Notes under the pieces: generated by a model
The model's database searches: none
Told to the model about the DNA's origin: nothing
What the model saw: the letters and a program-made list of their open reading frames with translations, nothing else
In this document: piece by piece, positions 1 through 24,000 of the stretch
How positions within the stretch are numbered: the first letter of the stretch is position 1
Layout of the letters: every line of letters begins with the position of its first letter
DNA from: Aggregatilineales bacterium
GTDB lineage: Bacteria > Chloroflexota > Anaerolineae > Aggregatilineales > Phototrophicaceae
Length of the DNA: 24,000 nucleotides
NCBI GenBank assembly: GCA_044226645.1
Contig: JBGAGR010000023.1
Span: 1,409 to 25,408, forward strand
Direction of reading: 5' to 3'
Made by a program: the position numbers and the translations under genes

Positions 1-186
1 ATGGCAATCCGGGAAGCCGCCGCCGTTCTCGCCGTTTTCCCCGTCATCGCCGCCGCCGACCCCCTCGGCGGGGCAGCGATGAGAGAAACTGCTGCCATGA
101 ATGCGGCGGTCAACATAGCACCATCGGGATCACATCATTCAAGTTCTATTCGCCTCTTTCAGGAGTCGAAAATTGCACGTTTACGG

Positions 187-1152
187 TTACTGCCCTGCCA
201 GACCGGAATAATTCACCCCTTCGACAAAGTAACGCTGGAAGAAGAAAAAGACCAGTGCCAGCGGTAAGGTTGTCACGACTGAACCTGCCAGAAAAGCATC
301 CCAGGGGAGCGCCGAGCCGAAATTGCCGCGCAGCAAGGCTAAACCTAACGGCAGATTCCACAGGTCAGGGTTGCGTTGTGCCACGATGAGCGGGTCAAGG
401 AAGGCATTCCACATGCCCTGAAAGCTGAAGATGGCTAAAGCGGTCAAAGCCGGAGTCGCCATCGGCAGGATGATGCGGAAGAACATCACATAACGGTTGG
501 CTCCATCGACCTGTGCGGCTTCTTCAATTTCTGTCGGGATCGATTCGAAGAACTGCTTCATCAGGAAAATACCGAACGCGCTGGTCGCTGCTGGAAGAAT
601 AAGCCCCTGATAAGTATCCAGCATTCCCAGCGAGCGCATGATGATAAAACGCGGGATGATGAGGACAATGCCGGGAATCATCATGGTTCCGAGAATGATG
701 AAAAAGAATAGGCGGTTGCCGGGAAATTTCAGCCGTGCCAGTGCATAACCTGCCATCGAGTCCAGCAGGAGATGCAATACAGTTGCCGATACGGAAAGGA
801 ATACGCTGTTGAACAACCAGCGCGGGATGCGTGGGTCACTGCTTTTCAGGTAGCCATCCAGACTCGGATTGAAGGATGCAGCAGTAGAGGTTTCATCAGC
901 AGGGCGCTGACCGCCTTTCTCATTCGTGCAGGAAATGCCGATGGGCGGTGCAGGAAAAAGCGCGAGCGGATTGGAATTAATAGATGGCAGGCACTTAAAG
1001 GAATTGACCACTGTAAAGACAAACGGCATGACCTGTACCAGCGCGAAGAAGATCAGGAATATCGCACCAATGATGGTCAGGATGTGACGGATATTGATTC
1101 GAAAGCCTTTGCTCTGTTGATGGTCTGGAAGGGTTGTTGCTGCTGTCGCCAT
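187..1152 (-). CDS. carbohydrate ABC transporter permease (CUT1 family, MalG/LacG-like)
   Basis: 321-aa ORF with a multi-TM hydrophobic profile. Contains the EAA-loop signature 'IPTEIEEAAQVDGANRYVMFFRIILPMATPAL'. A GGAGGAA Shine-Dalgarno lies just upstream of the ATG at 1152. Only 9 nt separate it from the preceding permease gene. Confidence 0.88.
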   Translation of the reverse strand: MATAATTLPDHQQSKGFRINIRHILTIIGAIFLIFFALVQVMPFVFTVVNSFKCLPSINSNPLALFPAPPIGISCTNEKGGQRPADETSTAASFNPSLDGYLKSSDPRIPRWLFNSVFLSVSATVLHLLLDSMAGYALARLKFPGNRLFFFIILGTMMIPGIVLIIPRFIIMRSLGMLDTYQGLILPAATSAFGIFLMKQFFESIPTEIEEAAQVDGANRYVMFFRIILPMATPALTALAIFSFQGMWNAFLDPLIVAQRNPDLWNLPLGLALLRGNFGSALPWDAFLAGSVVTTLPLALVFFFFQRYFVEGVNYSGLAGQ

Positions 1153-1161
1153 AGTTCCTCC

Positions 1162-2232
1162 CTATTCGTCCGCGCGTTCGCCAACAATGCGGCGCTGAAG
1201 CATGGTGAATGTAAAAATGATAATGAACAGCACAATCGCAGTTGCTGCTGCCAGACCCATTGCGGAATTTTTGAAGCCATTCTGGAAAACGATGTAAGCA
1301 ATCGTAACCGTCGTTTTGGCGGGGCCACCGCTGGAAATCACAAATATCTGGTCGAATACCTGAAAGCATCCGATCAGGCCGAGCGTGACGACGAAGAAAA
1401 TCGTCGGACGGAGCAGGGGGACTGTGATTTTGCGGAATATCTGCCACATTGTCGCGCCATCGACATAGGCCGCTTCATACACCTGACCGGGGATGTTTTG
1501 CAGTGCAGCAAGGAAGATCACCATCATCGTCCCGATAGTCGTCCAGGTGTTCAGTATCATGATGGTCAGCATGGTCGTGCTGGGGCCGCTGATCCAATCC
1601 CAGATGCGCAGTCCGGCGATTTCCGAGCGCACCCATTCCGGCGCACTTTTGAGAGTGATGCCGAACGCACCAAGAATGTTATGGAATAAGCCCGTCGCGT
1701 CGTCCAACCAGTTCACCGATTGGTAGTTCGGCACGATGGCTTTAATCAGGTTGTTGACCAGTCCTCCCCGTGTGAACATCCACATGAAGATGAGTGAAAT
1801 CACGACGGATGAGGTGATGGACGGGAAATAAAAAGCCGTTCGGAAGAAACCTTTAGCCCTCAACCAGCGTTGATTGACCACCACAGCTAACAGCAGGGCG
1901 AGAATGGTCTGCGTCGGAACCACGCCAAGCACATAATAGACTGTGTTTTTCAGTGATTTATAAAAATCCTGCTGGCGAATGCCGGGGTTAATGAGCAGGT
2001 CAGCATAATTTTCCAAACCAACCATCTGAAAGGCATCTTTTTCCGCTAACGGGGTGATTCCGTTCCAATCGGTAAAGCTCAAATAGAGCGAAATCAGGAT
2101 GGGGATAATCAAGAAGATCAGGAAAATAAGGAGCGCAGGCAGTAGGAAACTGTAACCCACTATGACTTCTTCACGCCGTTTGTCTGCAAGTGTCGCAGTT
2201 CGGGTGGCTGGCAAGGTCGCGGTATGCTGCAC
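1162..2232 (-). CDS. carbohydrate ABC transporter permease (CUT1 family, MalF/LacF-like)
   Basis: 356-aa hydrophobic ORF with the EAA loop '[26 protein letters not shown]'. The start is GTG at 2232, preceded by GGGAGGAAG. Confidence 0.88.
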
Positions 2233-2268
2233 GACTTCCTCCCTCTATCAATAAGCAATTTTTAGAAA

Positions 2269-2290
2269 GGGACACGTTTCGGCGTGTCCC
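2269..2290 (-). terminator. intercistronic GC-rich stem-loop between the binding-protein and permease genes (partial terminator or mRNA stabiliser)
   Basis: Perfect 8-bp stem GGGACACG (2269-2276) / CGTGTCCC (2283-2290) with a 6-nt loop. On the minus strand it is followed by TTTCTAAAAATT. Confidence 0.55.
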
Positions 2291-2307
2291 TGAGAGCAGA
2301 GTGCTAT

Positions 2308-3576
2308 TTATTTCTTCATGAGTTCGTCAGCAACGGCAGAAGCATCGCTGACAACATCTTCAGCCAGTTTATTACCGCTGAAGGCTTCCTGTAGGCTGGC
2401 GTTGAAGGTATCGTTGAACTGATTCCAACCCGCAGGCAGAATCCAGGGTACCGCATAAGCCGCACCAGCCGGGAATGAACCCAGTTCGGCTGCCAGATCA
2501 CCCATCTTCATATCGGTCAGCTTCTTCGTCCAGGTATCCTGCCATGCCTGTGTCGCGCTGGCACGAGTCGGCAGTACACCGAAGCCGCTGGTAGCAACCA
2601 TCATTTCGCCTTCTGCGCCGGTCAGGAAATTGACCAGCTTCCACGATTCATCGGGATGGGCATTGCTCTTGGCATTCACGCCGTAGCATACCGAGTAAAT
2701 CATAGTGGCCTGTCCACCATCCGGTCCCTTCGGCAGTTCGGAAACGCCCCATTGCAGGTCAGGCGCGTTATCCAGCATCGGCTGAATGACCCAGTTGCCT
2801 TCCATGACCATCGCGGCGCGGCCTTTCCAGAGGGCTTCACCACCCCAACCAGAGTCCACTGCTGAACTCGGCGCGGCGGTTCCGGCTGTGACCATATCGA
2901 GGAAGTAGCTGATCGCGCCAGTGGTCGCGTCACTGTTGAAGGTATAATTGCCATCGGCATCGAACAGCGAACCGCCATTCTGATAAACGAAGGGCAGCCA
3001 GCGGTTCAGGTCAGCAGGCAGTACCAGACCGATCACCTTATTGCCGTCCTTATCGGTTCCGGTCAGCTTTTCAGCCGCAGCCTTCAGGTCATCCCATGTC
3101 CAGTCGGCAGTCGGATAAGCGACACCTGCCGCATCGAACATGGCCTTGTTATATTCCAGGCCGAGGATCGAGTAATCCTTCGCCGGACAATAGAGTGTAC
3201 CATCCTTCGTGAACATATTACGCAGAGCGGGGAAAATGTCATCGGGATTTTCGATTTTATCCGAACCATCCGCGATTACCCCTGCGTCTGCCCATGAATT
3301 GAAGACATCGCTGTTGACATAGAACACTTCAGCATAATCGCCACTGGCAAACGCGGTCTGCATGGTGGTGGCGTATTCCGGCAGCGGATTAAACTCAACT
3401 TTAATATCGGGGTTGGCTGCCATAAAAGCATCCAACATCGTTTGCAGTGCGGCATCTTCCGCAGGGCTGGAAGCCCAACCCGCCAGACGCAGTGTAACCG
3501 GGTCTTGTGCCTGTGCCAGACCGGTGAGCGAAAGCGCCAGCACCATGACTGCTACGAATACAAAGAACTTACGCAT
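2308..3576 (-). CDS. extracellular sugar-binding protein of an ABC transporter (SBP family 1)
   Basis: N-terminal Sec signal 'MRKFFVFVAVMVLALSLTGLAQAQ' with no lipobox Cys. The Trp/Asp/Gly-rich body is typical of sugar SBPs. I prefer the ATG at 3576 over the track start at 3588, because codons 2-3 of the longer ORF spell GGAGGAG (3587-3581), an SD correctly spaced for 3576. Confidence 0.85.
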   Translation of the reverse strand: MRKFFVFVAVMVLALSLTGLAQAQDPVTLRLAGWASSPAEDAALQTMLDAFMAANPDIKVEFNPLPEYATTMQTAFASGDYAEVFYVNSDVFNSWADAGVIADGSDKIENPDDIFPALRNMFTKDGTLYCPAKDYSILGLEYNKAMFDAAGVAYPTADWTWDDLKAAAEKLTGTDKDGNKVIGLVLPADLNRWLPFVYQNGGSLFDADGNYTFNSDATTGAISYFLDMVTAGTAAPSSAVDSGWGGEALWKGRAAMVMEGNWVIQPMLDNAPDLQWGVSELPKGPDGGQATMIYSVCYGVNAKSNAHPDESWKLVNFLTGAEGEMMVATSGFGVLPTRASATQAWQDTWTKKLTDMKMGDLAAELGSFPAGAAYAVPWILPAGWNQFNDTFNASLQEAFSGNKLAEDVVSDASAVADELMKK

Positions 3577-3621
3577 ACTCTCCTCCATAATTTATATTCT
3601 CTGCGTGATTCAACAGCCTCG

Positions 3622-5844
3622 TCACGCTCTCGAGGCAACTTTTTCGGGGTTATCAACGGTAATGCGCCGTTGTTTACCCCGATAGTTCACCGTAAAGGAC
3701 ACCCGTTTCCAGTGTTCCGGTAAACGAGGGTCAAGCGCCAATTCACCATCGGTATTGATATGCAGGCCGCAAAAACCAAATGCGAGTGCCTGCCATAATC
3801 CGCCGCTGGCTGCGCCGTGAATGCCATCCCGCACGTTGCCTTTGTTGTCGTTCAGATCAATCGAGGCAGCATGTTCAAACATGTCATAGGCGGTTTCATC
3901 CAGTCCGAGGCGCGCCGCGACCCAGGCATGTACCGCTGGACTGAGGGATGAGCCATGATCGCAGCGGGGAAAATAGGTGTTCCAGTTATTCATCATCACT
4001 TCGCGCGAACCGACCTCATCGCCCAGCAAGGCCATGAGCATGACTACATCCGGCTGTTTGATGACCTGGGTCTGAATGCTGCGTTTATGTCCGATGATGG
4101 CCTGAACGCTGAGGGTGCGCGGTTCATAATGCTCGACCGGGATATATTCCTGTTCGAAGAAGCCGGGGAATTGAATATGAATCTGTTTTTCGTCATCAAA
4201 TGGGATAAACATCTTCTCAATCACATCCTGCCAGTGATCGAGGCGAGCTTCACTCAGAAAAAGTGCGCCCGCGAGCCGTTCGGCATCGGATGGCGCGTTT
4301 TGCTTCAGCCATTCCAACAGCATCAACGCCTGCTTGAGATGCCAGACGACCATACTGTTGGTAAAAACGCTGTTATCGACATTTTCATGATATTCATCCG
4401 GACCGATTTGCTGCGAAAGTTCGTAGCGCCCATTTTTAGCTTCAACACGGCTGCCCCAGAAAACCGCCGTATCCAGCACGATTTCCGCACCATATTTCAG
4501 TAAAAAGTCATCATCACCTGTCCAGCGCCAGTATTGCAGCACCGCATAGGCGATGTCCGTCGAGATATGTTGTTCGCTGTCACCTGTCCAGATGCGAATG
4601 CGCGAACCATCTGGCTGCGGGTCTGACCACTGCGGCGTAGTTTCTTCGCCTGTATCGGTACTTTCCCAGGGGTACATTGCGCCTTCATAGCCATTGGTTT
4701 TGGCTTTATTCCGTGCGCCTGCCAGCCGGTGATAGCGATACATCAGCAGGTTATGTGCGATTTTCGGCTGTGTGACGATGAGTGGTGGGAGGATAAACAG
4801 TTCGGTATCCCAGAACACGTGGCCTTTGTAGCCAGTACCGGAGAGCGTTTTCGCGCCAATACTGACATCATCGTCATGACGGGGTGCAGCAATCAGGATG
4901 TGATACTGCGTAAAGCGGATAGCAAGCTGCGCGAATTCGTCGCCTTCGATTTCTACATCGCTGCTTTGCCAATATTGCGCCCACTCGGCCTGATGCGCCT
5001 TGAGTAGTGCGTCGTAATCGGGTTTTTTGGATAAGGCCGCCAGTTCAGTAATCGCAGCATCAAGCGGCTTTTCGACATCGCGGCTAGTGTAAATGGTGGT
5101 GAATTTCAACAGTTCAATCGACTGCTCGTGACCCAGGCGGAAATGTGCTTGCGTGACAAATCCCTGTTCAGGGTCTTTTCCCGTGACGGCATTGGGCGCG
5201 ACGAAATGTGATGCCATGCCGATGCGATAGCCGGACTGCTGTGTTTTCATTTCAAGGCCGATGGTGTTGTCCCAACTGTTGATCTGCGCATCACCCCAAT
5301 GGGTAACGCCGAGATTGGTCGCATGCTGGTCAATGAAGGATTTGACTTCAATTTCCGGTTCACCATCTACGGCGATAAGTTGTACACGCTGCGCCATGAC
5401 ATGTTGATTGGCAAGGCTGGCGAAACGCTCAAAAATCAGGCGGACAATCGAACCGGACTCGGCGCGGAATAAAACTTCACGCCGAAGTACACCTTGATTG
5501 ATAAGCAGCCTGCGCTTGTAGCCTAAAACTGCGCCGCCAGTGGGTTTCAGATCGGTATTGTTCTGATTGATAAGGCGGAAAGGGGTTCTGTCAATGGTCA
5601 GATGAATGGGCAGCCAGTTTGGCGAGTTAACTAACTCTGGCACCAGCATCCCCGGTGCATGGTCAAAAATACCATGCACCATGGTTGTCGGCAGATCATC
5701 TTCATAGCCTTCTTCAAATGTCCCGCGTGTCGCCAGATAGCCGTTGCCAATGGTGAAAAGAGTCTCGTAGTGGTTCAGTTTTTCAGGATGAAACGGGAAT
5801 TCTTCTATCTCCCAGAGCTTCTGACGCACGATGAATTTCTCCAA
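3622..5844 (-). CDS. glycoside hydrolase family 65 disaccharide phosphorylase (kojibiose/maltose/trehalose phosphorylase type)
   Basis: 740-aa ORF. N-terminus 'YETLFTIGNGYLATRGTFEEGY' and the catalytic-acid region 'GYEGAMYPWESTDTGEE' match GH65 as I recall it. A beta-phosphoglucomutase gene lies nearby. The track start is TTG at 5844; a GTG at 5829 with GGAGA 8 nt upstream is an alternative. Confidence 0.85.
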   Translation of the reverse strand: MEKFIVRQKLWEIEEFPFHPEKLNHYETLFTIGNGYLATRGTFEEGYEDDLPTTMVHGIFDHAPGMLVPELVNSPNWLPIHLTIDRTPFRLINQNNTDLKPTGGAVLGYKRRLLINQGVLRREVLFRAESGSIVRLIFERFASLANQHVMAQRVQLIAVDGEPEIEVKSFIDQHATNLGVTHWGDAQINSWDNTIGLEMKTQQSGYRIGMASHFVAPNAVTGKDPEQGFVTQAHFRLGHEQSIELLKFTTIYTSRDVEKPLDAAITELAALSKKPDYDALLKAHQAEWAQYWQSSDVEIEGDEFAQLAIRFTQYHILIAAPRHDDDVSIGAKTLSGTGYKGHVFWDTELFILPPLIVTQPKIAHNLLMYRYHRLAGARNKAKTNGYEGAMYPWESTDTGEETTPQWSDPQPDGSRIRIWTGDSEQHISTDIAYAVLQYWRWTGDDDFLLKYGAEIVLDTAVFWGSRVEAKNGRYELSQQIGPDEYHENVDNSVFTNSMVVWHLKQALMLLEWLKQNAPSDAERLAGALFLSEARLDHWQDVIEKMFIPFDDEKQIHIQFPGFFEQEYIPVEHYEPRTLSVQAIIGHKRSIQTQVIKQPDVVMLMALLGDEVGSREVMMNNWNTYFPRCDHGSSLSPAVHAWVAARLGLDETAYDMFEHAASIDLNDNKGNVRDGIHGAASGGLWQALAFGFCGLHINTDGELALDPRLPEHWKRVSFTVNYRGKQRRITVDNPEKVASRA

Positions 5845-5860
5845 ACCAGCAATAAGCAGC

Positions 5861-5889
5861 TTAAACGTTTAATTCACTTAAACGTTTAA
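5861..5889. promoter_or_regulatory. two tandem LacI-type operator palindromes TTAAACGTTTAA
   Basis: Two identical, perfectly palindromic, CG-centred 12-mers at 5861-5872 and 5878-5889, each inside the 14-nt direct repeat CTTAAACGTTTAAT. Centres are 17 bp apart. They lie 17-45 nt upstream of the GH65 start, in the divergent region shared with the LacI gene at 6072. Confidence 0.65.
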
Positions 5890-6071
5890 TATAGCGGATT
5901 TGCGCGTTTTAGCCAACTATTTGCCAGAAAATCTGGCAAAATTATATAAGTTGCACAATTTCCCCTTCAGGTCAGATTGATTCAGGCATGACTTTTCTTG
6001 ACCTTTGCTGGTATTTTGGCAACACATTGCTGTATGATGGGGCTGCCACCCAGTTACACTAGGAAGATGAG

Positions 6072-7094
6072 ATGCCAACCATCAAAGATGTCGCGCGGGA
6101 AGCAGGGGTATCTATCGCTACTGTTTCATATGTTCTGAATAACAAAATGACCTTCGTGAGCGAGGAAACACGTCGCCAGGTACTGGAAACCATTGAACGC
6201 ATCGGTTATACGCCCAATGTCACCGCTCGAAATCTAAAGGCCAGTCAAACCCGGTTAATTGGCTATGCTTGGCATAAAGTCCGTGATGATGAAGTGAACC
6301 CGGTGTTAGACCGTTTCGCCTATTATCTTGCTCAGGCCGTTGAGGCGGCGGGTTATCACCTGCTGACATTTACGCACGAGCAGGATAATCCTGAACCCGT
6401 TTACGATGAATTGATTCGAATGCAGCGGCTGGATGGCTTTGTTTTATCGGGCACAGTTCGTGATGACAGAAGAATTCGCTTTTTGATGGATGCGGGTTTC
6501 CCTTTTGTGAGCTTTGGTCGCGCGAACGCCAATTGGGATTTTCCCTGGGTAGATACGGATGGTCGCGAGGGCGTGCGAAGCGTTGTCAATTATTTGACTT
6601 CTCTGGGGCATGAGCGAATCGCCATGGTCGCATGGCCTGAAGAATCCATTTCCGGCAGCTTCCGCGTTCAGGGCTATATCGAGGCGTTGGAATTGGTGGG
6701 TCTTCCTTTTTCGCCCGAATATCTGATCCGCGATGAGCACAGTGAAATGGCTGGACGACACGCCCTGATGCAGTGGATGCAGCTTCCCGCGAACGAGCGT
6801 CCTACGGCGATTATTGCGATTACTGATTTGGTGGCCATCGGCATTCTCAATCAGGCAGAAGCCTTTGGTTTGACGATTGGTCGTGATCTATCGGTTGTTG
6901 GATTTGACGATATACCGATGGGACAATATCTGCATCCACCCTTAACGACGGTTCGCCAGCCCATTGGGGAAATCGGGCAGGAGATTGTCCGTATTCTCAA
7001 TACAGGGCTGAATAAAGGTAAGTGGAATGATTGTCACAGCTTGATTCCACCAACCTTGATTATCCGCGAGTCATGTGGGGTTCCGTCGGCTTAG
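6072..7094 (+). CDS. LacI/GalR-family transcriptional repressor
   Basis: N-terminal HTH 'MPTIKDVAREAGVSIATVSYVLNN', followed by a periplasmic-binding-protein-like sugar-sensor fold ('VVGFDDIPM' motif). AGGAAG SD upstream. Confidence 0.9.
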   Translation: MPTIKDVAREAGVSIATVSYVLNNKMTFVSEETRRQVLETIERIGYTPNVTARNLKASQTRLIGYAWHKVRDDEVNPVLDRFAYYLAQAVEAAGYHLLTFTHEQDNPEPVYDELIRMQRLDGFVLSGTVRDDRRIRFLMDAGFPFVSFGRANANWDFPWVDTDGREGVRSVVNYLTSLGHERIAMVAWPEESISGSFRVQGYIEALELVGLPFSPEYLIRDEHSEMAGRHALMQWMQLPANERPTAIIAITDLVAIGILNQAEAFGLTIGRDLSVVGFDDIPMGQYLHPPLTTVRQPIGEIGQEIVRILNTGLNKGKWNDCHSLIPPTLIIRESCGVPSA

Positions 7095-7733
7095 CCAGTT
7101 TTGTAACACCTCGCGCGGGGTAATGGCCTGTAGACCCGATACTACCATATGCGCACGGGAAACATTCGCCGACCCGATGCCAATGGCATGAAAGCCTCCT
7201 GTCAAGGCAGCTTCAATGCCTGCTTCAGCATCCTCAAAAACCACGGCTTCCAATGGGGACACATTCAATCTCCCTGCCACCCATATGAACAGATCGGATG
7301 CGGGTTTAGAATTGACCACACTATGACCATCGCCAATAGCATTGAATAGGTCAAGAATTTCCAATCGTTCGAGTACTGTCCGCGCGTTCTTACTGGCAGA
7401 ACCAATACCGAGCAAAATTCCCATGCTGCGTGCTTCAGCCAAAAAATCCATAACCCCCGGCAGACAATTATCAGGTGTGATGGTTTCCAGATACTGGCTG
7501 TAATAAGAATTTTTCCGCTCCATCCAGGCTAATGCTGTTGCCTCTTCAATAATCTTCCCTTTTAGGATCCGATTCAGGCTCTCACGCCGCGAGACACCGC
7601 GAAGTTGATCATTGTCTGCACGAGTGAATGAGATGTTTTCTTCATCAGCCAGGCGTTTCCAGGCTCGGTAGTGGAATTCTGCCGTATCCGTAATAACGCC
7701 GTCCAAATCAAAAATAAAAGCTCGAATTGCCAT
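7071..7733 (-). CDS. pgmB: beta-phosphoglucomutase (HAD superfamily)
   Basis: 220-aa ORF. 'FIFDLDGVITDTAEFHYRAWKRLADE' carries the HAD DxDG nucleophile motif with the beta-PGM-typical cap. Also 'GIGSASKN' and 'VFEDAEAGIEAA'. It is genomically linked to a GH65 phosphorylase, which produces beta-glucose-1-phosphate. Confidence 0.85.
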   Translation of the reverse strand: MAIRAFIFDLDGVITDTAEFHYRAWKRLADEENISFTRADNDQLRGVSRRESLNRILKGKIIEEATALAWMERKNSYYSQYLETITPDNCLPGVMDFLAEARSMGILLGIGSASKNARTVLERLEILDLFNAIGDGHSVVNSKPASDLFIWVAGRLNVSPLEAVVFEDAEAGIEAALTGGFHAIGIGSANVSRAHMVVSGLQAITPREVLQNWLSRRNPT

Positions 7734-7878: not shown

Positions 7879-7907
7879 TTGACAATTCACATGATTTCTG
7901 ATAACGT
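7879..7907 (+). promoter_or_regulatory. sigma70-like promoter of the second LacI gene/operon
   Basis: TTGACA (7879-7884), a 17-nt spacer, then TAACGT (7902-7907, which keeps the TAnnnT positions). The -10 lies inside the palindromic operator. Confidence 0.5.
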
Positions 7908-7929
7908 TATCAGAAATCGTTATCAGAAA
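7893..7929. promoter_or_regulatory. 26-bp perfect palindromic LacI-type operator plus an extra half-site
   Basis: GATTTCTGATAACGTTATCAGAAATC (7893-7918) equals its own reverse complement and is CG-centred. The half-site CGTTATCAGAAA is repeated at 7905-7916 and 7918-7929. The region ends 12 nt before the ATG at 7941. Confidence 0.7.
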
Positions 7930-7940
7930 AATTATTTTTC

Positions 7941-8999
7941 ATGACCAAAAAGAATACTACTGCTCGTAGTGAAAATCGTGGTGTCACTATAGGGGATGTC
8001 GCCAAAGCTGCTGGTGTATCTATCCCAACCGTTTCACGCATCCTCAACGGCAAGGAATATGTAGCTGACGAAACACGCCAACGTGTTAACGATGCTATTC
8101 GCACCTTAGGCTATACTCCCCACACTCAGGCTCGCCGTTTGCGTGGGGGCGCGACTATGACTCTGGCGCTGCATCATCCTATCGAATCCCCTCACGATCT
8201 CAGTAACGCTATTGAAACCTCCTATTTCACTGGCACAGCAGAAGCGGCCAGCGAAAAAGAATATTTCATTAATTTTCTCGTATCACAGCTAACCCCTGAA
8301 TCATTACTCAACATGTACCGGAGCAGCCAGATTGATGGGATTATCCTGCTTCAAGTCCGTATGGATGATTGGCGTGTCAATCTCCTTCGGGAACATGATT
8401 ATCCCTTCGTCATGATTGGTCGCTGTGCCGATTTGGAAGGCTTAACCTTCATTGACCTTGATTTTGAGAATGCAATGCTTCTGGCGTTCAATCATCTGGT
8501 CGGGTTAGGGCACAGACACATTGGATTTCTAACTTACCCTGAATCCTGGCGTAAAGCTGGAATTGGCCCCTCGGTTCGCTCTCTCGACGGGTATCAGCAA
8601 GCGCTAAACCACTATGGTTTCCGTAGCAGCTACCGTGAAATTGGGTTGAACAGTGTTGAAGAAGGTTTTGAGGGAACTCACGACTTGCTTCAGGAGAACC
8701 CCGAACTGACGGCCATTATTACGGTAAGCCATTTGACAGCCGCTGGCAGTATCAAAGCTTTAGCTGCGCAAGGTCGCAGTGTCCCCCAGGATTGCTCGGT
8801 AATGAGCATCGGCTTTGGTGGTGATTTCGCCAGCGTCGTTACACCCTCGCTGACCACATTGGAATGGTCGCCATATGAGGTTAGTTACCAGGCGACTATT
8901 TTGATGACCGAGAAACTCAAACAGCACGATTTACCCGCTCAACAGATTCTTGTCGCGCCCAATTTAGTGGTCAGGGAGAGTACCAAAGCAGTGACTTAA
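7941..8999 (+). CDS. LacI/GalR-family transcriptional repressor
   Basis: HTH 'VTIGDVAKAAGVSIPTVSRILNGKEYVADETRQRVNDAIRTLGYTPH', then a sugar-binding-domain-like C-terminus. No obvious SD before the ATG. Confidence 0.88.
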   Translation: MTKKNTTARSENRGVTIGDVAKAAGVSIPTVSRILNGKEYVADETRQRVNDAIRTLGYTPHTQARRLRGGATMTLALHHPIESPHDLSNAIETSYFTGTAEAASEKEYFINFLVSQLTPESLLNMYRSSQIDGIILLQVRMDDWRVNLLREHDYPFVMIGRCADLEGLTFIDLDFENAMLLAFNHLVGLGHRHIGFLTYPESWRKAGIGPSVRSLDGYQQALNHYGFRSSYREIGLNSVEEGFEGTHDLLQENPELTAIITVSHLTAAGSIKALAAQGRSVPQDCSVMSIGFGGDFASVVTPSLTTLEWSPYEVSYQATILMTEKLKQHDLPAQQILVAPNLVVRESTKAVT

Positions 9000-16387: not shown

Positions 16388-16599
16388 ACGTTTCTGCCAC
16401 GCGAAAGGCGCAGAAGGTAGCAAGCAGATAATCCAGCAGTTACTTTGTCGCAGTGAGTATGCTGACTGACAAATAATCAATTACATTCAGTCTGACAATA
16501 GAGATCGAAGGTAAGGGATAAAAGCGCATTGTTGGGGTATCATAGCGAACTGACTGCATCATTTGAAGACGACATAATTTTTGATGGAGACAGTACAAA

Positions 16600-16907
16600 T
16601 TGTAAACGACCCCACACCGAAAGGTGGAGGCTTTCAATAACCCAACGTTTACCCGACTCAGGCTTGAAACAAAGCCTACGTTAGGGGCGAATAGATAGGC
16701 ACTTCGGGATGCTTCACCAGTCCCGAACCCTGCGGTATACGATTAAACAGGCTAAAGGGAATATGCCAGTGTCGTATACATGATTGAACAAGGGGACGCT
16801 ACGCGCACGAAAGTGTTTGCAATCCCCTTATTCAATCAAAACCGCTCCATAACATTGTCAAGGTGAGCTTTACTCCCGCAAGGGAAGATTATTGAGGTAA
16901 CTCAATG
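16600..16907 (+). ncRNA. candidate omega RNA scaffold of the IscB system (5' end and guide position not determined)
   Basis: Dense perfect local stems:
- 16602-08/16646-52 (7 bp), enclosing the CACC-GAAA-GGTG hairpin (16615-26)
- 16660-65/16672-77 (6 bp)
- 16703-09/16721-27 (7 bp)
- 16735-42/16772-79 (8 bp)
- 16781-96/16823-38 (8+7 bp around one C/A mismatch, tipped by CAC-GAAA-GTG)
- TCCC-GCAA-GGGA (16874-85)
- ATTGAG-GTAA-CTCAAT (16891-906)
The region lies directly upstream of iscB, on the same strand, and overlaps its start. Confidence 0.6.
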
Positions 16908-18233
16908 CAAAGAGTTCTGGTCGTAGATAAGAACAGACAGCCGCTCATGCCCTGCTATCCAGCGCGAGCAAGAGAATTGCTGCGAAAAGGGAAGGCAGCG
17001 GTACTGCGTCGTTATCCCTTCACCATCATCATAGATCGTGCAGGTGGGGATACCCAACCCGTAGCTTTCAAGGTTGACCCTGGCAGCCATCAGACTGGGC
17101 TGGCATTGGTCGCCGATTTCAAGCGCGGGAAACGACTGATCTGGGCAGCAGTGTTGGAACATCGTGGTCAGCAAATCAAGAACGCACTGGAAAGTCGCCG
17201 CGTACTGCGCCGCAGTCGCCGCAATCGGCATACGCGCTACCGTCCCGCGCGCTTCAATAATCGTCATACCGATAAGAGACACCTGCCGCCATCGCTTCAA
17301 TCCCGAATTGAGAATATTTGGACGTGGTTTTCTCGCCTCCATAATGCCTGTCTCATTACCTCTTTATCTCAGGAGTTGGTTCGTTTCGATACTCAACTGA
17401 TGCAGAATTCCGAAATCAGCGGTGTAGAATATCAGCAAGGTGAGTTGGTCGGATACGAAGTGCGGGAATACCTGCTGGAAAAATGGGGACGCAAGTGTGC
17501 CTACTGCGGCGCGAAGGATGTTCCTTTGCAAATTGAACATATCACGCCGAAAGCACGCGGCGGTACAAACCGGGTCAGCAACCTGACCATCGCTTGCAAG
17601 CCGTGTAATCAGGCCAAGAACACGCAGACAGCAGCCGAATTTGGACACCCACAGGTACAGGCGAAAGCGAAAATGCCGTTGAAAGATGCAGCGGCGGTTA
17701 ATGCGACCCGTTGGGCACTGTTTCGCCGTCTGGAAATGACTGGTTTGCCACTGGAAATAGGGACAGGCGGACGCACCAAATACAATCGAGTGCAGCAAGG
17801 CTATCCAAAAGAACATTGGATTGACGCAGCTTGTGTGGGAGAAAGCGGAGCAAGCGTGTTGATTGAGCTGAAGCACATCCCTGTGCACATCACGGCGACG
17901 GGTCATGGCTCACGGCAAATATGCCGAACCGATCCATATGGTTTTCCAATTCGCCACCGCTTGCGTCAGAAACGCCATTTTGGTTTTCAAACGGGGGACA
18001 TGGTGAAGGCCAATGTCTCATCCGGCAAATACAGCGGGAAACACAGTGGACGTGTGGCTTGCCGCGCCACCGGACGCTTCGACATCAGGACGACTTGTGG
18101 CAAAGTCACCGTCAGCCACAGGACTTGCAAGATCGTTCACCACTCAGATGGCTATAGCTACCAGAAAGGAAGAACAACGCCTCTGCGAAACGTCCCAGAC
18201 CCAAGGATCGGGGTTTCCGGCGATGTTTATTGA
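16905..18233 (+). CDS. iscB: IscB-family RNA-guided endonuclease (PLMP + split RuvC + HNH; OMEGA system effector)
   Basis: 442-aa ORF with these motifs in IscB order:
- 'NRQPLMPC' PLMP motif (aa 11-17)
- RuvC-I 'FKVDPGSHQTGLA' (D58)
- Arg-rich bridge helix 'RRVLRRSRRNRHTRYRPARFNNR'
- RuvC-II 'SQELVRFD' (E157)
- HNH 'CAYCG...LQIEHITPKARGGTNRVSNLTIACKPCNQAKN' (H212)
- RuvC-III 'KEHWIDAACVG' (H304, D307)
- C-terminal 'GFQTGDMV...GRVACRATGRFDI...HHSDGYSY'
GAGG SD sits 7 nt upstream of the ATG. Confidence 0.85.
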   Translation: MQRVLVVDKNRQPLMPCYPARARELLRKGKAAVLRRYPFTIIIDRAGGDTQPVAFKVDPGSHQTGLALVADFKRGKRLIWAAVLEHRGQQIKNALESRRVLRRSRRNRHTRYRPARFNNRHTDKRHLPPSLQSRIENIWTWFSRLHNACLITSLSQELVRFDTQLMQNSEISGVEYQQGELVGYEVREYLLEKWGRKCAYCGAKDVPLQIEHITPKARGGTNRVSNLTIACKPCNQAKNTQTAAEFGHPQVQAKAKMPLKDAAAVNATRWALFRRLEMTGLPLEIGTGGRTKYNRVQQGYPKEHWIDAACVGESGASVLIELKHIPVHITATGHGSRQICRTDPYGFPIRHRLRQKRHFGFQTGDMVKANVSSGKYSGKHSGRVACRATGRFDIRTTCGKVTVSHRTCKIVHHSDGYSYQKGRTTPLRNVPDPRIGVSGDVY

Positions 18234-20389
18234 TGACTGAATCTACCTCAACTCAACCAACCGAATTATTGCCTGCTTATCTGGATTCTTCCCGTTCCAT
18301 CGCTGAACGTGTGGAGGATCTCCTATCGCGCTTGACACTGGATGAAAAAATCGGGCAGATGTGTAACGTGACTCAGGCGATTCCACGTTTAAACATCCCG
18401 GCCTATGACTACTGGAGTGAGGCGCTGCACGGGGTCGCCGGAAATGGACGTGCAACGGTTTTCCCGCAAGCTATCGGTATGGCTGCAACCTGGGATCCGG
18501 TACTTGTCCAGAAAATCGCTTCAGTAGTCGGTGACGAAGCCCGCGCCAAATATCACGAGGCACTGCGGCGCAAAGGTTCTACAGGGATGTTCCAGGGATT
18601 GACTCTGTGGTCGCCGAATATCAACATTTTTCGTGATCCGCGCTGGGGGCGGGGGCAGGAAACCTGGGGCGAAGATCCATTTTTGACAGGCGAAATGGGC
18701 GCTGCCTATGTGCGCGGGCTTCAAGGCGATCACCCGAAGTATCTCAAAACGGCGGCCTGTGCCAAACACTTCGCAGTACACAGCGGGCCGGAAAAACTGC
18801 GCCACACGTTTAATGCGAAGGTCTCACCTCGTGACCTGAATGCGACTTATCTTCCAGCTTTCAAAAAGCTGGTCATGGAAGCTGGAGTTGAATCTGTCAT
18901 GGGGGCTTATAACCGCACCAATGATGAACCGTGCTGCGGCAGCCCGTTTTTGCTGGTTAAGACGTTACGTGGCGATTGGGCTTTTCAGGGACATGTCGTG
19001 TCAGACTGCGGGGCAGTCACCGATTTTGACCAGGGTCATAAAGTAACCGCTGATGTCGTCGAAAGCGCCGCCTTAGCGCTCAAAGCAGGCTGCGACATGA
19101 GCTGCATATGCGCTTATGAACATCTGGGAGAAGCAATTGATCGTGGGCTGATTACGGAAGCGGATATTGATCGTTCACTGGGGCGTACTCTCACGACTCG
19201 TTTTAAGCTCGGTATGTTTGATCCGCCTGAAGATGTTCCCTATACAGCGATTCCCATGAGTGTCGTCGGCAGTTCTGACCATCGTCAGTTGGCTTACGAA
19301 GCTGCTGTAAAGTCGGTTGTGCTGCTGAAAAACAAGGACAATATCCTGCCGATCCGTGAAGAAAATCAGAAAATTATGCTGGTCGGCCCGAATGCTGCGA
19401 GTATCGAGGTGCTGCTGGGCAATTACAACGGCCTGAATGATTCACTGATGACCTTTATGGAAGGTATTGTCGCACGTATACCAGAAGGCAACGAACTGCG
19501 CTACCATCCCGGAAGCCTGCTCAACCAGCCTGCTGAAGCACCAGAGTGGTTGTTGAGCGGTTCATCGAGCTTTGACGTGACCATCGCTTGTATGGGGATC
19601 ACGCCATCGATGGAAGGAGAGGAAGGTCATGCGCTCCTTTCCGCCGAGCAAGGTGATCGTGCGGAAATCACCCTGCCACCCGCGCAGGCCGAACATCTCA
19701 GGAAACTGGCGCAGAATGGTGCTAAAGTGGTGCTGGTGCTTACCGGCGGCAGTCCCATTGCCCTGGGCGACCTGGAAGACCTCATGCAGGCGATTGTGTA
19801 TGTCTGGTATCCCGGTCAGGAAGGTGGCAGAGCAGTCGCCGATGTGCTGTTCGGTGATGTGGCTCCTTCCGGCAAACTACCACTGACATTCCCGAAATCG
19901 GTGGAGCAGCTTCCGCCCTTTGAAGATTACGATATGACCGGGCGAACTTACCGCTATGCGACACAAGAACCGCTTTTCCCATTTGGCTTTGGCCTGAGCT
20001 ACACCCGCTTCACCTACAGCGATCTGAAGCTGGACAGGACTACCATCCGGGCGGGAGAATCGCTGTCACTTCACTACACCCTGACCAACAGCGGTGCAGT
20101 GGAAGCGGAAGAAGTCGCCCAGGTTTACCTGACTGATCTGCAAGCCTCAACAGTTGTGCCCCTGCACAGCCTAATCGGTTTCCAACGAGTCCATCTCAAA
20201 TCTGGAGAGCGAACCGTCCTTACCTTCACCATAACCCCTGAGATGATGAAACTGGTGAATGATGCCGGAGATCGCGTGCTGGAACCCGGCGAGTTCCGGG
20301 TAACAGTTGGGAGCTGCTCGCCGGGTGAGCGTGGCGCGCGGCTGGGCGCTTCTACGCCCCTCAGCATGACCTTCACAGTTGCCACGTAG
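18233..20389 (+). CDS. glycoside hydrolase family 3 beta-glucosidase / beta-xylosidase (BglX/Xyl3-like with Fn3-like C-terminal domain)
   Basis: 'LTLDEKIGQM', 'YWSEALHGV', 'RDPRWGRGQETWGEDP', 'GHVVSDCGAV' (nucleophile-Asp region) and 'PLFPFGFGLSYTRF'. I prefer the ATG at 18233, which overlaps the iscB TGA as TGATG. The track start is TTG at 18230. No SD is visible. Confidence 0.85.
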   Translation: MTESTSTQPTELLPAYLDSSRSIAERVEDLLSRLTLDEKIGQMCNVTQAIPRLNIPAYDYWSEALHGVAGNGRATVFPQAIGMAATWDPVLVQKIASVVGDEARAKYHEALRRKGSTGMFQGLTLWSPNINIFRDPRWGRGQETWGEDPFLTGEMGAAYVRGLQGDHPKYLKTAACAKHFAVHSGPEKLRHTFNAKVSPRDLNATYLPAFKKLVMEAGVESVMGAYNRTNDEPCCGSPFLLVKTLRGDWAFQGHVVSDCGAVTDFDQGHKVTADVVESAALALKAGCDMSCICAYEHLGEAIDRGLITEADIDRSLGRTLTTRFKLGMFDPPEDVPYTAIPMSVVGSSDHRQLAYEAAVKSVVLLKNKDNILPIREENQKIMLVGPNAASIEVLLGNYNGLNDSLMTFMEGIVARIPEGNELRYHPGSLLNQPAEAPEWLLSGSSSFDVTIACMGITPSMEGEEGHALLSAEQGDRAEITLPPAQAEHLRKLAQNGAKVVLVLTGGSPIALGDLEDLMQAIVYVWYPGQEGGRAVADVLFGDVAPSGKLPLTFPKSVEQLPPFEDYDMTGRTYRYATQEPLFPFGFGLSYTRFTYSDLKLDRTTIRAGESLSLHYTLTNSGAVEAEEVAQVYLTDLQASTVVPLHSLIGFQRVHLKSGERTVLTFTITPEMMKLVNDAGDRVLEPGEFRVTVGSCSPGERGARLGASTPLSMTFTVAT

Positions 20390-23297: not shown

Positions 23298-23407
23298 CGA
23301 GAATTCCTTATAGGGTTGGGTGTTTTGTGTTAGTCTTTAATGCCTTTGAATGCTGTGCCGCGAATGAATCGCCTTTTGAGAACATAGGAATCCGATTGAC
23401 TCGCTGT

Positions 23408-24000
23408 TCATCCCTTGACCGAGCCTTGAAGCAGTGCTGAGATAATCTGGCGTTGAAATAATATGAAGATAATGAGGGTGGGCAGCAGAATGAGAATCGT
23501 CCCAGCACACAGCAGTGGAACATTCGTCGCATAGTGCCCCTGGAATGCCCCCAAGGCTCCTGCCATCGTTCGCTCCGTCGGGTCTTCGACCAGCACCAGC
23601 GCGATGAGAAACTGGTTCCATGTCCAGACCGACATGAGGATTCCGAGCGAGGCCATAGGTGCACGTGCCAGCGGGAGGTGAATACGCCAGAATAGTTCCC
23701 ACGTCGTCGCACCATCGACACGAGCCGCCTCCGAGATTTCGGTGGGGATGTTGACGAAATGCGCACGCATCCAGAATACGGCGAACGGCATGTACAAACC
23801 GATCAGCGGCAGCACAATCGCAAGCCGAGTGTTGTAGATTCCCATGCTGCGTTCCAGGTAGTAAAGCGGGACGATGATCCCCCCGAAAGGGAGTGTCAAT
23901 CCGAACACAAACAGAAACAGCAGCACACGCGAACCAGGGATGCGCAGATGACCGATAGCGAAACCCGCCATGGTCGAGATAGCCAGCGATATTGGAACGA
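23408..24000 (-). CDS. carbohydrate ABC transporter permease (MalG/LacG-like), 5'-truncated by the window edge
   Basis: EAA loop 'IPTEISEAARVDGATTWELFWRIHLPLARAPM' in a hydrophobic TM profile, ending 'GSVKG*'. The reading frame stays open to position 24000, and the in-window length is too short for a complete permease. Confidence 0.8.
   Translation of the reverse strand, partial: VPISLAISTMAGFAIGHLRIPGSRVLLFLFVFGLTLPFGGIIVPLYYLERSMGIYNTRLAIVLPLIGLYMPFAVFWMRAHFVNIPTEISEAARVDGATTWELFWRIHLPLARAPMASLGILMSVWTWNQFLIALVLVEDPTERTMAGALGAFQGHYATNVPLLCAGTILILLPTLIIFILFQRQIISALLQGSVKG

Follow-up and report, generated by a model that had tools for sequence, protein, structure and literature searches.

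The biochemistry and structures of IscB–ωRNA (OMEGA) systems have been characterised since 2021, and their engineering into compact genome editors is already under way. In these systems the ωRNA is encoded immediately upstream of the RNA-guided nuclease IscB, and the guide is taken from the flank beyond the transposon's right end. Here we describe a locus with the same arrangement in a 24,000-nucleotide stretch from an Aggregatilineales bacterium (Chloroflexota; assembly GCA_044226645.1, contig JBGAGR010000023.1, positions 1,409 to 25,408 of the forward strand), referred to below as the window. Nucleotides 16602–18232 very probably constitute a non-autonomous IS200/IS605-type (‘ISC’) transposon that encodes an intact IscB together with its cognate ωRNA, was inserted without duplication 5′ of an ATGA in the leader of a glycoside hydrolase family 3 (GH3) gene, and works by the mechanism proposed below. 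The locus is a typical IscB element and no new kind of biology; its local peculiarities are an additional 56-nt hairpin in the ωRNA and its insertion at a start codon.

The domain order and catalytic residues of the encoded protein are those of OgeuIscB (PDB 7XHT, 7UTN and 8CSZ), TbaIscB (9K30), HfmIscB (9K2Z) and the G. stearothermophilus IscB (Meers et al.). As in other IscB–ωRNA systems, there is no REC lobe, CRISPR array or cas1/cas2 pair, and the protein passes the NCBIfam equivalog model for IscB. The differences are of degree: identity to the solved IscBs is ~15–20% in Foldseek alignments, the protein is shorter (~420 conserved residues against the 496 residues of OgeuIscB), the ωRNA has its extra hairpin, and the target-adjacent motif (TAM) appears to be a 4-nt RTGA abutting the target, whereas the TAMs of characterised IscBs are mostly 6 nt long (NWRRNA, MRNRAA; PMC11666462). 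The RNA itself matches the full HEARO model (RF02033) above its gathering score, is placed and oriented canonically upstream of an HNH open reading frame (ORF), and departs from the model by the 56-nt insert between model positions 173 and 174 and by an additional covarying hairpin 3′ of the model. HEARO is the RNA now named IscB ωRNA (Meers et al. preprint; review PMC13565253).

Two further systems are instructive. IsrB of Desulfovirgula thermocuniculi (PDB 8DMB) has the same PLMP/RuvC/bridge-helix core (phmmer 5.6e-14, Foldseek 1e-19, target TM-score 0.72), and the published IsrB TAMs (NTGA, TTGA and ATGG; PMC9581776) resemble the RTGA/RTGG junction motif of the window family; however, IsrB lacks the HNH domain and only nicks DNA, whereas the window protein has a complete HNH insertion. 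With IS608 and ISDra2 the element shares insertion 3′ of a short motif without duplication, imperfect subterminal hairpins and a nuclease guide taken from the right-end flank. The left-end hairpin of IS608 lies 19 nt from the cleavage site, as it does in the window element. Unlike IS608 and ISDra2, both classical IS200/IS605 elements with TnpA and TnpB, the window element has no TnpA; its accessory nuclease is an IscB and, by the TnpA convention, lies on the opposite strand. The window family has TCAY as its target motif in place of TTAC or TTGAT.

Ends of the element and its empty site

The limits of the element follow from comparison with other loci. Three copies in one Chloroflexota metagenome-assembled genome (MAG; loci L003, L005 and L007) resemble the window from GTAA(A/G)C at 16602, which is position 1 of the HEARO model, to TTGATGA at 18230–18236; outside the equivalent of 16602–18236, the three copies and the window are unrelated. 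The empty site was rebuilt by joining 16388–16601 to 18233 onward, and it aligns with no gap across the junction to L081, a GH3 ortholog without the element. At the junction, GGAGACAGTACAAATT is followed by ATGACTGAATCT in the rebuilt window site and AGGATAATACAAATT by ATGACTGAATCC in L081, and no duplicated bases were present in this alignment. The gapless alignment therefore defines the element as 16602–18232 and indicates insertion without target duplication. By the TnpA convention, which reads the minus strand of the window, position 16602 is the right end and 18232 the left, placing the right end on the ωRNA side as described for IscB elements (Meers et al. preprint).

Both ends carry a subterminal hairpin (Table 1), and the right-end hairpin resembles the left-end one in sequence (CCYC.AYC / GGT.TGGG on the minus strand). 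In related loci the left-end hairpin is found 18–24 nt from the junction with unrelated stems, for example CCGCTACC/GGTAGCGG and CTGTCGCG/CGCGACAG. When the two ends were folded as single DNA sequences the z-scores were weak (−1.2 to −1.8), so that the support for the hairpins is comparative, between loci; since the stems are imperfect, an automatic perfect-stem finder placed the left-end hairpin cleanly in about one third of the loci.

Inside 16602–18232 the only ORFs are iscB and short frames overlapping it, and tnpA is not among them. A domain scan covering 18 window ORFs (the non-overlapping ORFs of at least 150 aa plus 23308–23766) likewise found no tnpA or Y1_Tnp domain. Given that neither the element nor the scanned ORFs encode a Y1 TnpA, the element is classed as non-autonomous; TnpA is missing from most HEARO/IscB loci (PMC9755519). 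Base composition gave no sign of a foreign origin of the element relative to its flanks (GC 0.51–0.54 and 0.46–0.55, respectively).

The IscB protein and its ωRNA

By profile, alignment and predicted structure, the 442-aa ORF is a genuine IscB with intact catalytic residues, and is predicted to cleave DNA. It matches NCBIfam NF040563 (‘RNA-guided endonuclease IscB’, an equivalog model) with 433.8 bits against a cutoff of 175 (residues 4–312, model positions 1–314 of 314) and the Pfam family RRXRR (PF14239) with an E-value of 5.5e-64 and 215.7 bits against a cutoff of 25 (residues 4–179); three Pfam HNH models (HNH, HNH_5 and HNH_4) match residues 198–247, HNH with E ~1e-12. The best matches in a phmmer-level search of PDB sequences were TbaIscB, HfmIscB, several OgeuIscB-type chains, an engineered OrufIscB and IsrB, and a family-profile search of the PDB returned TbaIscB at 1e-56, HfmIscB at 4e-40 and OgeuIscB at ~1e-34 to 1e-36. 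A preliminary description of this DNA, made from the letters alone, had proposed an IscB on the strength of its motif order; all coordinates that it gave agree with the translation, exactly or to within a few bases, and the profile match now supports the identification at equivalog level.

The description had also held the catalytic residues to be intact, and the alignments bear this out. Against the solved IscB chain 11hr_A, D58 corresponds to D60, E157 to the RuvC-II Glu, H212 to H246 and H304/D307 to the H..D pair. Among 118 homologs (63–83% identity) D58, E157, H212, C198, C201, C234 and N226 are invariant, and H304, D307 and C231 are at least 90% conserved. The HNH domain, with its CxxC...H...N...CxxC signature, is inserted between RuvC-II and RuvC-III. 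The PLMP region aligns with that of the solved IscBs and IsrB; within QPLMP (residues 12–16), 22 homologs show no variation at L14, M15 or P16; across the set of 118, P16 stays invariant and L14 and M15 are at least 90% conserved. Translation and model agree on a bridge helix at residues 88–107, followed by RRSRRNRHTRYRPARFNNR. The protein was described as far too small to hold a Cas9 REC lobe, and none is present in its 442 residues. Residues 360–421, the candidate TAM-interacting domain, form a family-conserved β-domain that is modelled with confidence; its sequence similarity to the C-termini of solved IscBs is non-significant (−1.3 bits).

The AlphaFold2 (AF2) model was built on a 118-sequence alignment (mean predicted local distance difference test score, pLDDT, 80.7; predicted template-modelling score, pTM, 0.74), and an earlier model from 22 homologs (pLDDT 55) was discarded. 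When the model was compared with the PDB by Foldseek, each of the top ten matches was a complex of IscB or IsrB with ωRNA and target DNA (E 2.8e-22 to 4.2e-15), as expected from the original identification; compact Cas9s occupied ranks 11–13 and canonical Cas9s came after them.

These searches also bear on two other identities. Databases name homologs ‘HNH endonuclease’ or ‘5-methylcytosine-specific restriction endonuclease McrA’, and the HNH domain weakly matches McrA and Gme HNH structures, as would be the case for a stand-alone HNH/McrA restriction or homing endonuclease, or an HNH protein of a group II intron, that is not RNA-guided. However, the HNH domain accounts for residues 198–247 of 442 only and lies within a split RuvC, and McrA-type and free HNH enzymes align over ~83–128 columns (the HNH domain only) with E ~1e-2, compared with E 3e-22 for a full-length IscB. 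In addition, a conserved structured RNA is attached upstream, and Pfam detected no reverse-transcriptase domain. The best matches by hidden Markov model, PDB sequence and Foldseek are clearly IscBs and not members of a non-RuvC HNH family, and we regard an HNH/McrA or intron identity, refuted by the IscB model, the PDB alignment, HEARO and Foldseek, as next to impossible. The expectation that automated annotation would say only ‘HNH endonuclease’ holds in part: homologs go by McrA or HNH endonuclease in JGI and in earlier NCBI naming, but the current NCBI model calls them IscB.

The second identity, a remnant or miniature type II CRISPR–Cas9 (Cas9d-like, for instance) that has lost its array, could draw on weak matches to NF049971 (Cas9d, 37 bits) and TIGR01865 (Cas9, 19 bits) as well as on the compact Cas9 structures among the Foldseek matches. 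Yet the cutoffs of these models, 375 and 100 bits, are far above the scores, and the matches cover the HNH region only. No CRISPR-like repeats occur anywhere in the 24-kb window and no cas1/cas2 domains were found in the 18 scanned ORFs, in agreement with what was first noted about the surroundings; the REC lobe is missing, and the locus has transposon ends and an ωRNA instead. The sub-cutoff scores and the lack of CRISPR repeats in the window refute a Cas9 remnant, to which we give practically no weight.

This IscB belongs to a very large clade and has close relatives in the thousands: 8,000 candidates were scored at E ≤1e-10, and the best 120 homologs, all at least 63% identical, come mostly from Chloroflexota and cyanobacterial metagenomes. 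The closest among species representatives belong to Anaerolineae, Aggregatilineales and other Chloroflexota MAGs, at 65% identity or below. An identical protein is already present in NCBI-derived data, unnamed and on one contig.

The upstream non-coding region, which had been suggested to supply the RNA partner, contains a full-length HEARO match: with 120.2 bits, RF02033 exceeds its gathering score of 83, covers model positions 1–211 of 211 and ends 31 nt before the IscB ATG, and HEARO is the sole Rfam family found in the window. HEARO immediately precedes IscB in 21 of 22 related loci, the exception being a 5′-truncated contig that is cut inside the ORF. Immediately 3′ of the model, a GNRA hairpin is supported by covariation across 17 loci, with 98.5% of cells paired and 21 double changes compared with 4.7 in shuffles; slid registers pair only 29–47%. 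This is consistent with the remark that RF02033 is without downstream structure (Meers et al. preprint). The 56-nt insert falls in a multi-loop junction where the model has no base pairs, and it folds at −15.5 kcal/mol (z = −5.35; none of 200 shuffles was as stable). No other copy was found in the window or the compared loci, and the hairpin could be a lineage-specific functional expansion.

The columns assigned to the guide (16586–16601) are unconserved in 17 aligned ωRNA loci, and conservation begins at the next base; the guide region differs among the three same-genome copies, and that of the window has its homologue in the GH3 leader at the empty site L081. The guide length of 16 nt was adopted from published IscB systems. 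On the other side, the window and all three same-genome copies share an ATGA just after the left end. Junction motifs read by eye (n = 55) comprise ATGA in 27 cases, GTGA in 21, ATGG in five and GTGG in two, a 55/55 agreement with RTGR that is partly circular, because all junctions save four objectively defined ones were sought with RTGR in mind. From these junctions we infer an RTGA TAM that would abut the target on its 3′ side. In the element-free site, ATGA comes immediately after the guide match, as cleavage with such a TAM would require; within the window the guide has one match, which is followed by GTAAAC and not by a TAM.

Proposed mechanism and competing explanations

The mechanism that we propose follows the published model for IscB elements and starts from what the sequences show: an IscB family member whose catalytic residues are intact, its ωRNA, the limits of the element, its empty site and a conserved motif at the flank. 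Transcription would enter from the host GH3 leader, yielding an RNA composed of the ~16-nt guide (16586–16601), the scaffold (16602–~16885) and the iscB mRNA. IscB would bind the ωRNA, and the ribonucleoprotein (RNP) would recognise a guide match with RTGA as the 3′ TAM, an arrangement present solely at the element-free site, where GGAGACAGTACAAATT is followed by ATGA. HNH would then cut the target strand and RuvC the non-target strand, and recombinational repair from an element-bearing copy would restore or spread the element (transposon-restorative homing). The occupied locus should be immune, since the guide match there runs into the GTAAAC of the scaffold and no TAM follows. Transposition proper would be carried out by a TnpA acting in trans on the two subterminal hairpins. 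The predicted parts of this scheme are the transcription start, the guide length, the TAM, the cleavage activity and homing.

A source of transcription may be present in the host leader. The homologous GH3 leaders of L081 and of a second GH3 ortholog without the element, L082, contain TATAAT-like boxes (window 16388–16601; L081 ~380–508; L082 ~3870–4000), and in L082 the gene upstream of GH3 lies on the opposite strand, which suggests that GH3 probably has its own promoter. In the window, the GH3 leader promoter would now drive the ωRNA and iscB, and from the σ70-like candidate in Table 1 transcripts would begin near 16585, around the first base of the guide.

Besides the partial circularity of the junction count, several observations weigh against an active, homing element. 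The promoter scan yielded three sites where 2.1 were expected, which is no better than chance or shuffled sequence. The lack of tnpA in the scanned window ORFs bears on current mobility. The HEARO score of 120 is at the low end among relatives (109–155), and the 56-nt insert is unique to the locus, being absent from 16 aligned relatives, and might impair RNP assembly. Together with the finding of the exact protein on a single contig only, the last three points favour a copy that is IscB by descent and now stranded and inert, with an ωRNA disabled by the insert and no transposase, drifting to decay. Nevertheless, the ORF is full-length and its catalytic and zinc-binding residues are all conserved; the hairpins, Shine-Dalgarno sequence and junction are intact, as are both ends of the transposon; and an 83%-identical full-length homolog (P0002) has the same C-terminal tail. 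The insert, moreover, sits at an unpaired multi-loop junction and forms a clean autonomous hairpin, resembling an expansion segment and not random damage, and HEARO matches of 179–246 nt in relatives indicate that scaffold size varies. We therefore judge an inert copy to be unlikely and keep to the intact IscB transposon.

A different role was also considered, in which a domesticated IscB–ωRNA works for the host, for instance as an RNA-guided GH3 regulator comparable to the TnpB-derived TldR repressors, and not as a homing nuclease. In its favour, the guide consists of GH3 leader sequence, a TGATG overlap joins the element to the adjacent GH3 start codon, and nuclease-dead TnpB derivatives that work in this way are known (review PMC13565253). 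However, all nuclease residues of the window protein are intact, unlike those of known domesticated repressors, and the transposon ends are intact as well. The guide match in the occupied locus has no TAM, so the RNP should not bind its own locus, and the existence of close GH3 orthologs without the element points to a recent insertion and not to a conserved regulatory module. Domestication is in our view highly improbable, and the proposed homing transposon accounts better for the locus.

Insertion at the GH3 start codon and the surrounding locus

The ATG of the flanking ATGA (18233–35) is the GH3 start codon, and A18233 also completes the stop codon of IscB: the TGA at 18231–33 consists of two element bases and the A of the flanking ATG, giving a TGATG overlap. 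The element-free orthologs L081 (83%) and L082 (80%) use the same ATG start as the window GH3, and on this comparison the insertion has split the GH3 5′ leader from the GH3 start codon. The initial placement of iscB inside a glycoside-hydrolase operon is thus fair, but can be refined to the GH3 5′ leader, abutting the start codon.

In two related loci, L161 (~4310) and L163 (~4324), the junction ATG is likewise the start of the called downstream gene. More broadly, an ORF of at least 80 codons begins at 16 of 27 ATGA junctions, compared with 18% for ATGA sites overall in these loci (p ~3e-6), and at only two of 21 GTGA junctions; as the junctions were read by hand and the loci are not independent, we treat these counts as a lead rather than a result. 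HEARO elements reportedly integrate next to ATGA or GTGA, and the start-codon idea may be partly published. Tentatively, and as a possibility that we do not favour, in the ATGA-junction IscB elements under comparison the RTGA might preferentially be made up of a co-oriented host gene's start codon and one further base. The element would sit between leader and ATG, borrow the promoter and 5′ untranslated region for its guide, end its ORF on a stop codon completed by the target and pass ribosomes on via TGATG; the 56-nt hairpin would be a possible expansion. If this is true, insertion would be nearly neutral and expression of the guide guaranteed.

The same geometry bears on the C-terminus of IscB. 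Its last ~20 residues, after DGYSY-KG (18171–18233, residues ~423–442), lie outside the conserved protein and are disordered in the AF2 model, and the tails of homologs vary in length and sequence. Because the IscB frame runs through the transposon end, the tail is the translated left end of the transposon, comprising its outer stem and hairpin. Database protein lengths for the family are therefore inflated by a constraint that is not protein-coding.

The whole window is a carbohydrate-utilisation island. Pfam assignments to the window ORFs give the order LacI regulator, ABC transporter, GH31, GH29 α-L-fucosidase, IscB element, GH3 and α/β-hydrolase, so that glycoside hydrolases flank iscB on both sides (GH31 and the GH29 fucosidase upstream, GH3 downstream), and a GH65 cluster lies on the strand opposite to the GH31–GH29–element–GH3 series. 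The GH65 cluster, a second sugar cluster on the minus strand (187–7733), encodes ABC permeases, a solute-binding protein and a GH65 phosphorylase; a LacI regulator and a HAD hydrolase accompany it. Immediately 5′ of the LacI-family regulator ORF at 7941 we observed a perfect 13-nt tandem repeat at 7905–7929 (CGTTATCAGAAAT, 1.9 copies), which may be an operator-like site.

Long antisense ORFs of 146 and 180 aa lie within iscB on the minus strand (16902–17342 and 17364–17906) and are taken to be by-products of coding-strand composition. In other loci, tRNA genes were seen 5′ of IscB elements, at L005:5222–5296 (minus strand), ~450 nt from the ωRNA end, and at L061:2759–2830 (plus strand), ~2.9 kb away. 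In L081, 5′ of the GH3 leader (~100–250), one frame resembles what we take to be the C-terminus of a DDE (IS5-type) transposase (...KIKHFRRIFSRFDKLA...); judging by this presumed likeness, the GH3 neighbourhood seems to be insertion-prone in relatives too.

Table 1. Coordinates of the features discussed in the text (window numbering; residues refer to IscB)
Feature	Position	Strand	Basis
Proposed mobile element, 1,631 bp, non-autonomous, IS200/IS605-type	16602..18232	+	three same-genome copies and empty site L081
Right-end subterminal hairpin, 9 nt inside the end, doubling as first ωRNA stem-loop	16611..16630		sequence, HEARO structure line
Imperfect subterminal hairpin of the left end (CCCAGACC-CAAG-GATCGGGG), 19 nt inside it, in iscB 3′ tail	18194..18213		locus comparison
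Candidate σ70-like promoter, CTGACT-17 nt-CATAAT, host GH3 leader	16550..16578	+	consensus scan
Inferred 16-nt ωRNA guide segment GGAGACAGTACAAATT, host-derived, outside the element	16586..16601	+	ωRNA-locus alignment, copies, empty site
ωRNA scaffold: HEARO 16602–16873 and covarying GNRA hairpin 16874–16885	16602..16885	+	Rfam, covariation
56-nt insertion, extra stem-loop in ωRNA junction	16780..16835	+	Rfam insert, relatives’ alignment, folding
Shine-Dalgarno sequence GAGG, 7 nt 5′ of the IscB ATG	16894..16897	+	sequence; GAGGTAAC kept in most aligned relatives
iscB coding sequence, 442 aa, ATG start	16905..18233	+	ORF call, Pfam, NCBIfam, PDB comparison, AF2
PLMP domain	residues 4–45; PLMP motif residues 13–16 = nt 16941–16952	+	translation
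RuvC-I	D58 = GAC, 17076–78	+	translation and sequence
Arg-rich bridge helix	residues 88–120; Arg-rich stretch 96–120	+	translation, model
RuvC-II	E157	+	translation
HNH domain	residues 198–247 (C198/C201, H212, N226, C231/C234/N235)	+	Pfam and translation
RuvC-III	H304/D307	+	translation
β-rich C-terminal domain	residues 360–421; DGYSY 415–419	+	translation, model
Non-conserved tail	residues 423–442	+	homolog comparison
ATGA flanking the left end: inferred IscB TAM; other strand TCAT, putative TnpA target site	18233..18236	+	copies and related junctions
Host GH3 glycoside hydrolase gene	18233..20389	+	Pfam Glyco_hydro_3, Glyco_hydro_3_C, Fn3-like

Collectively, our results make the locus an unusually well-defined natural example of an IscB element, with exact ends, an empty site, a readable native guide and an inferred short TAM obtained from sequence alone. 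Since published IscB TAMs are mostly 6 nt long, a 4-nt TAM, as predicted here, on a protein of ~420 conserved residues would be of interest to developers of genome-editing tools. For the elements themselves, insertion at a start codon with overlapping stop and start codons suggests how they may sit in operons without killing downstream expression, and it also suggests a source of transcription for a guide that lies outside the element.

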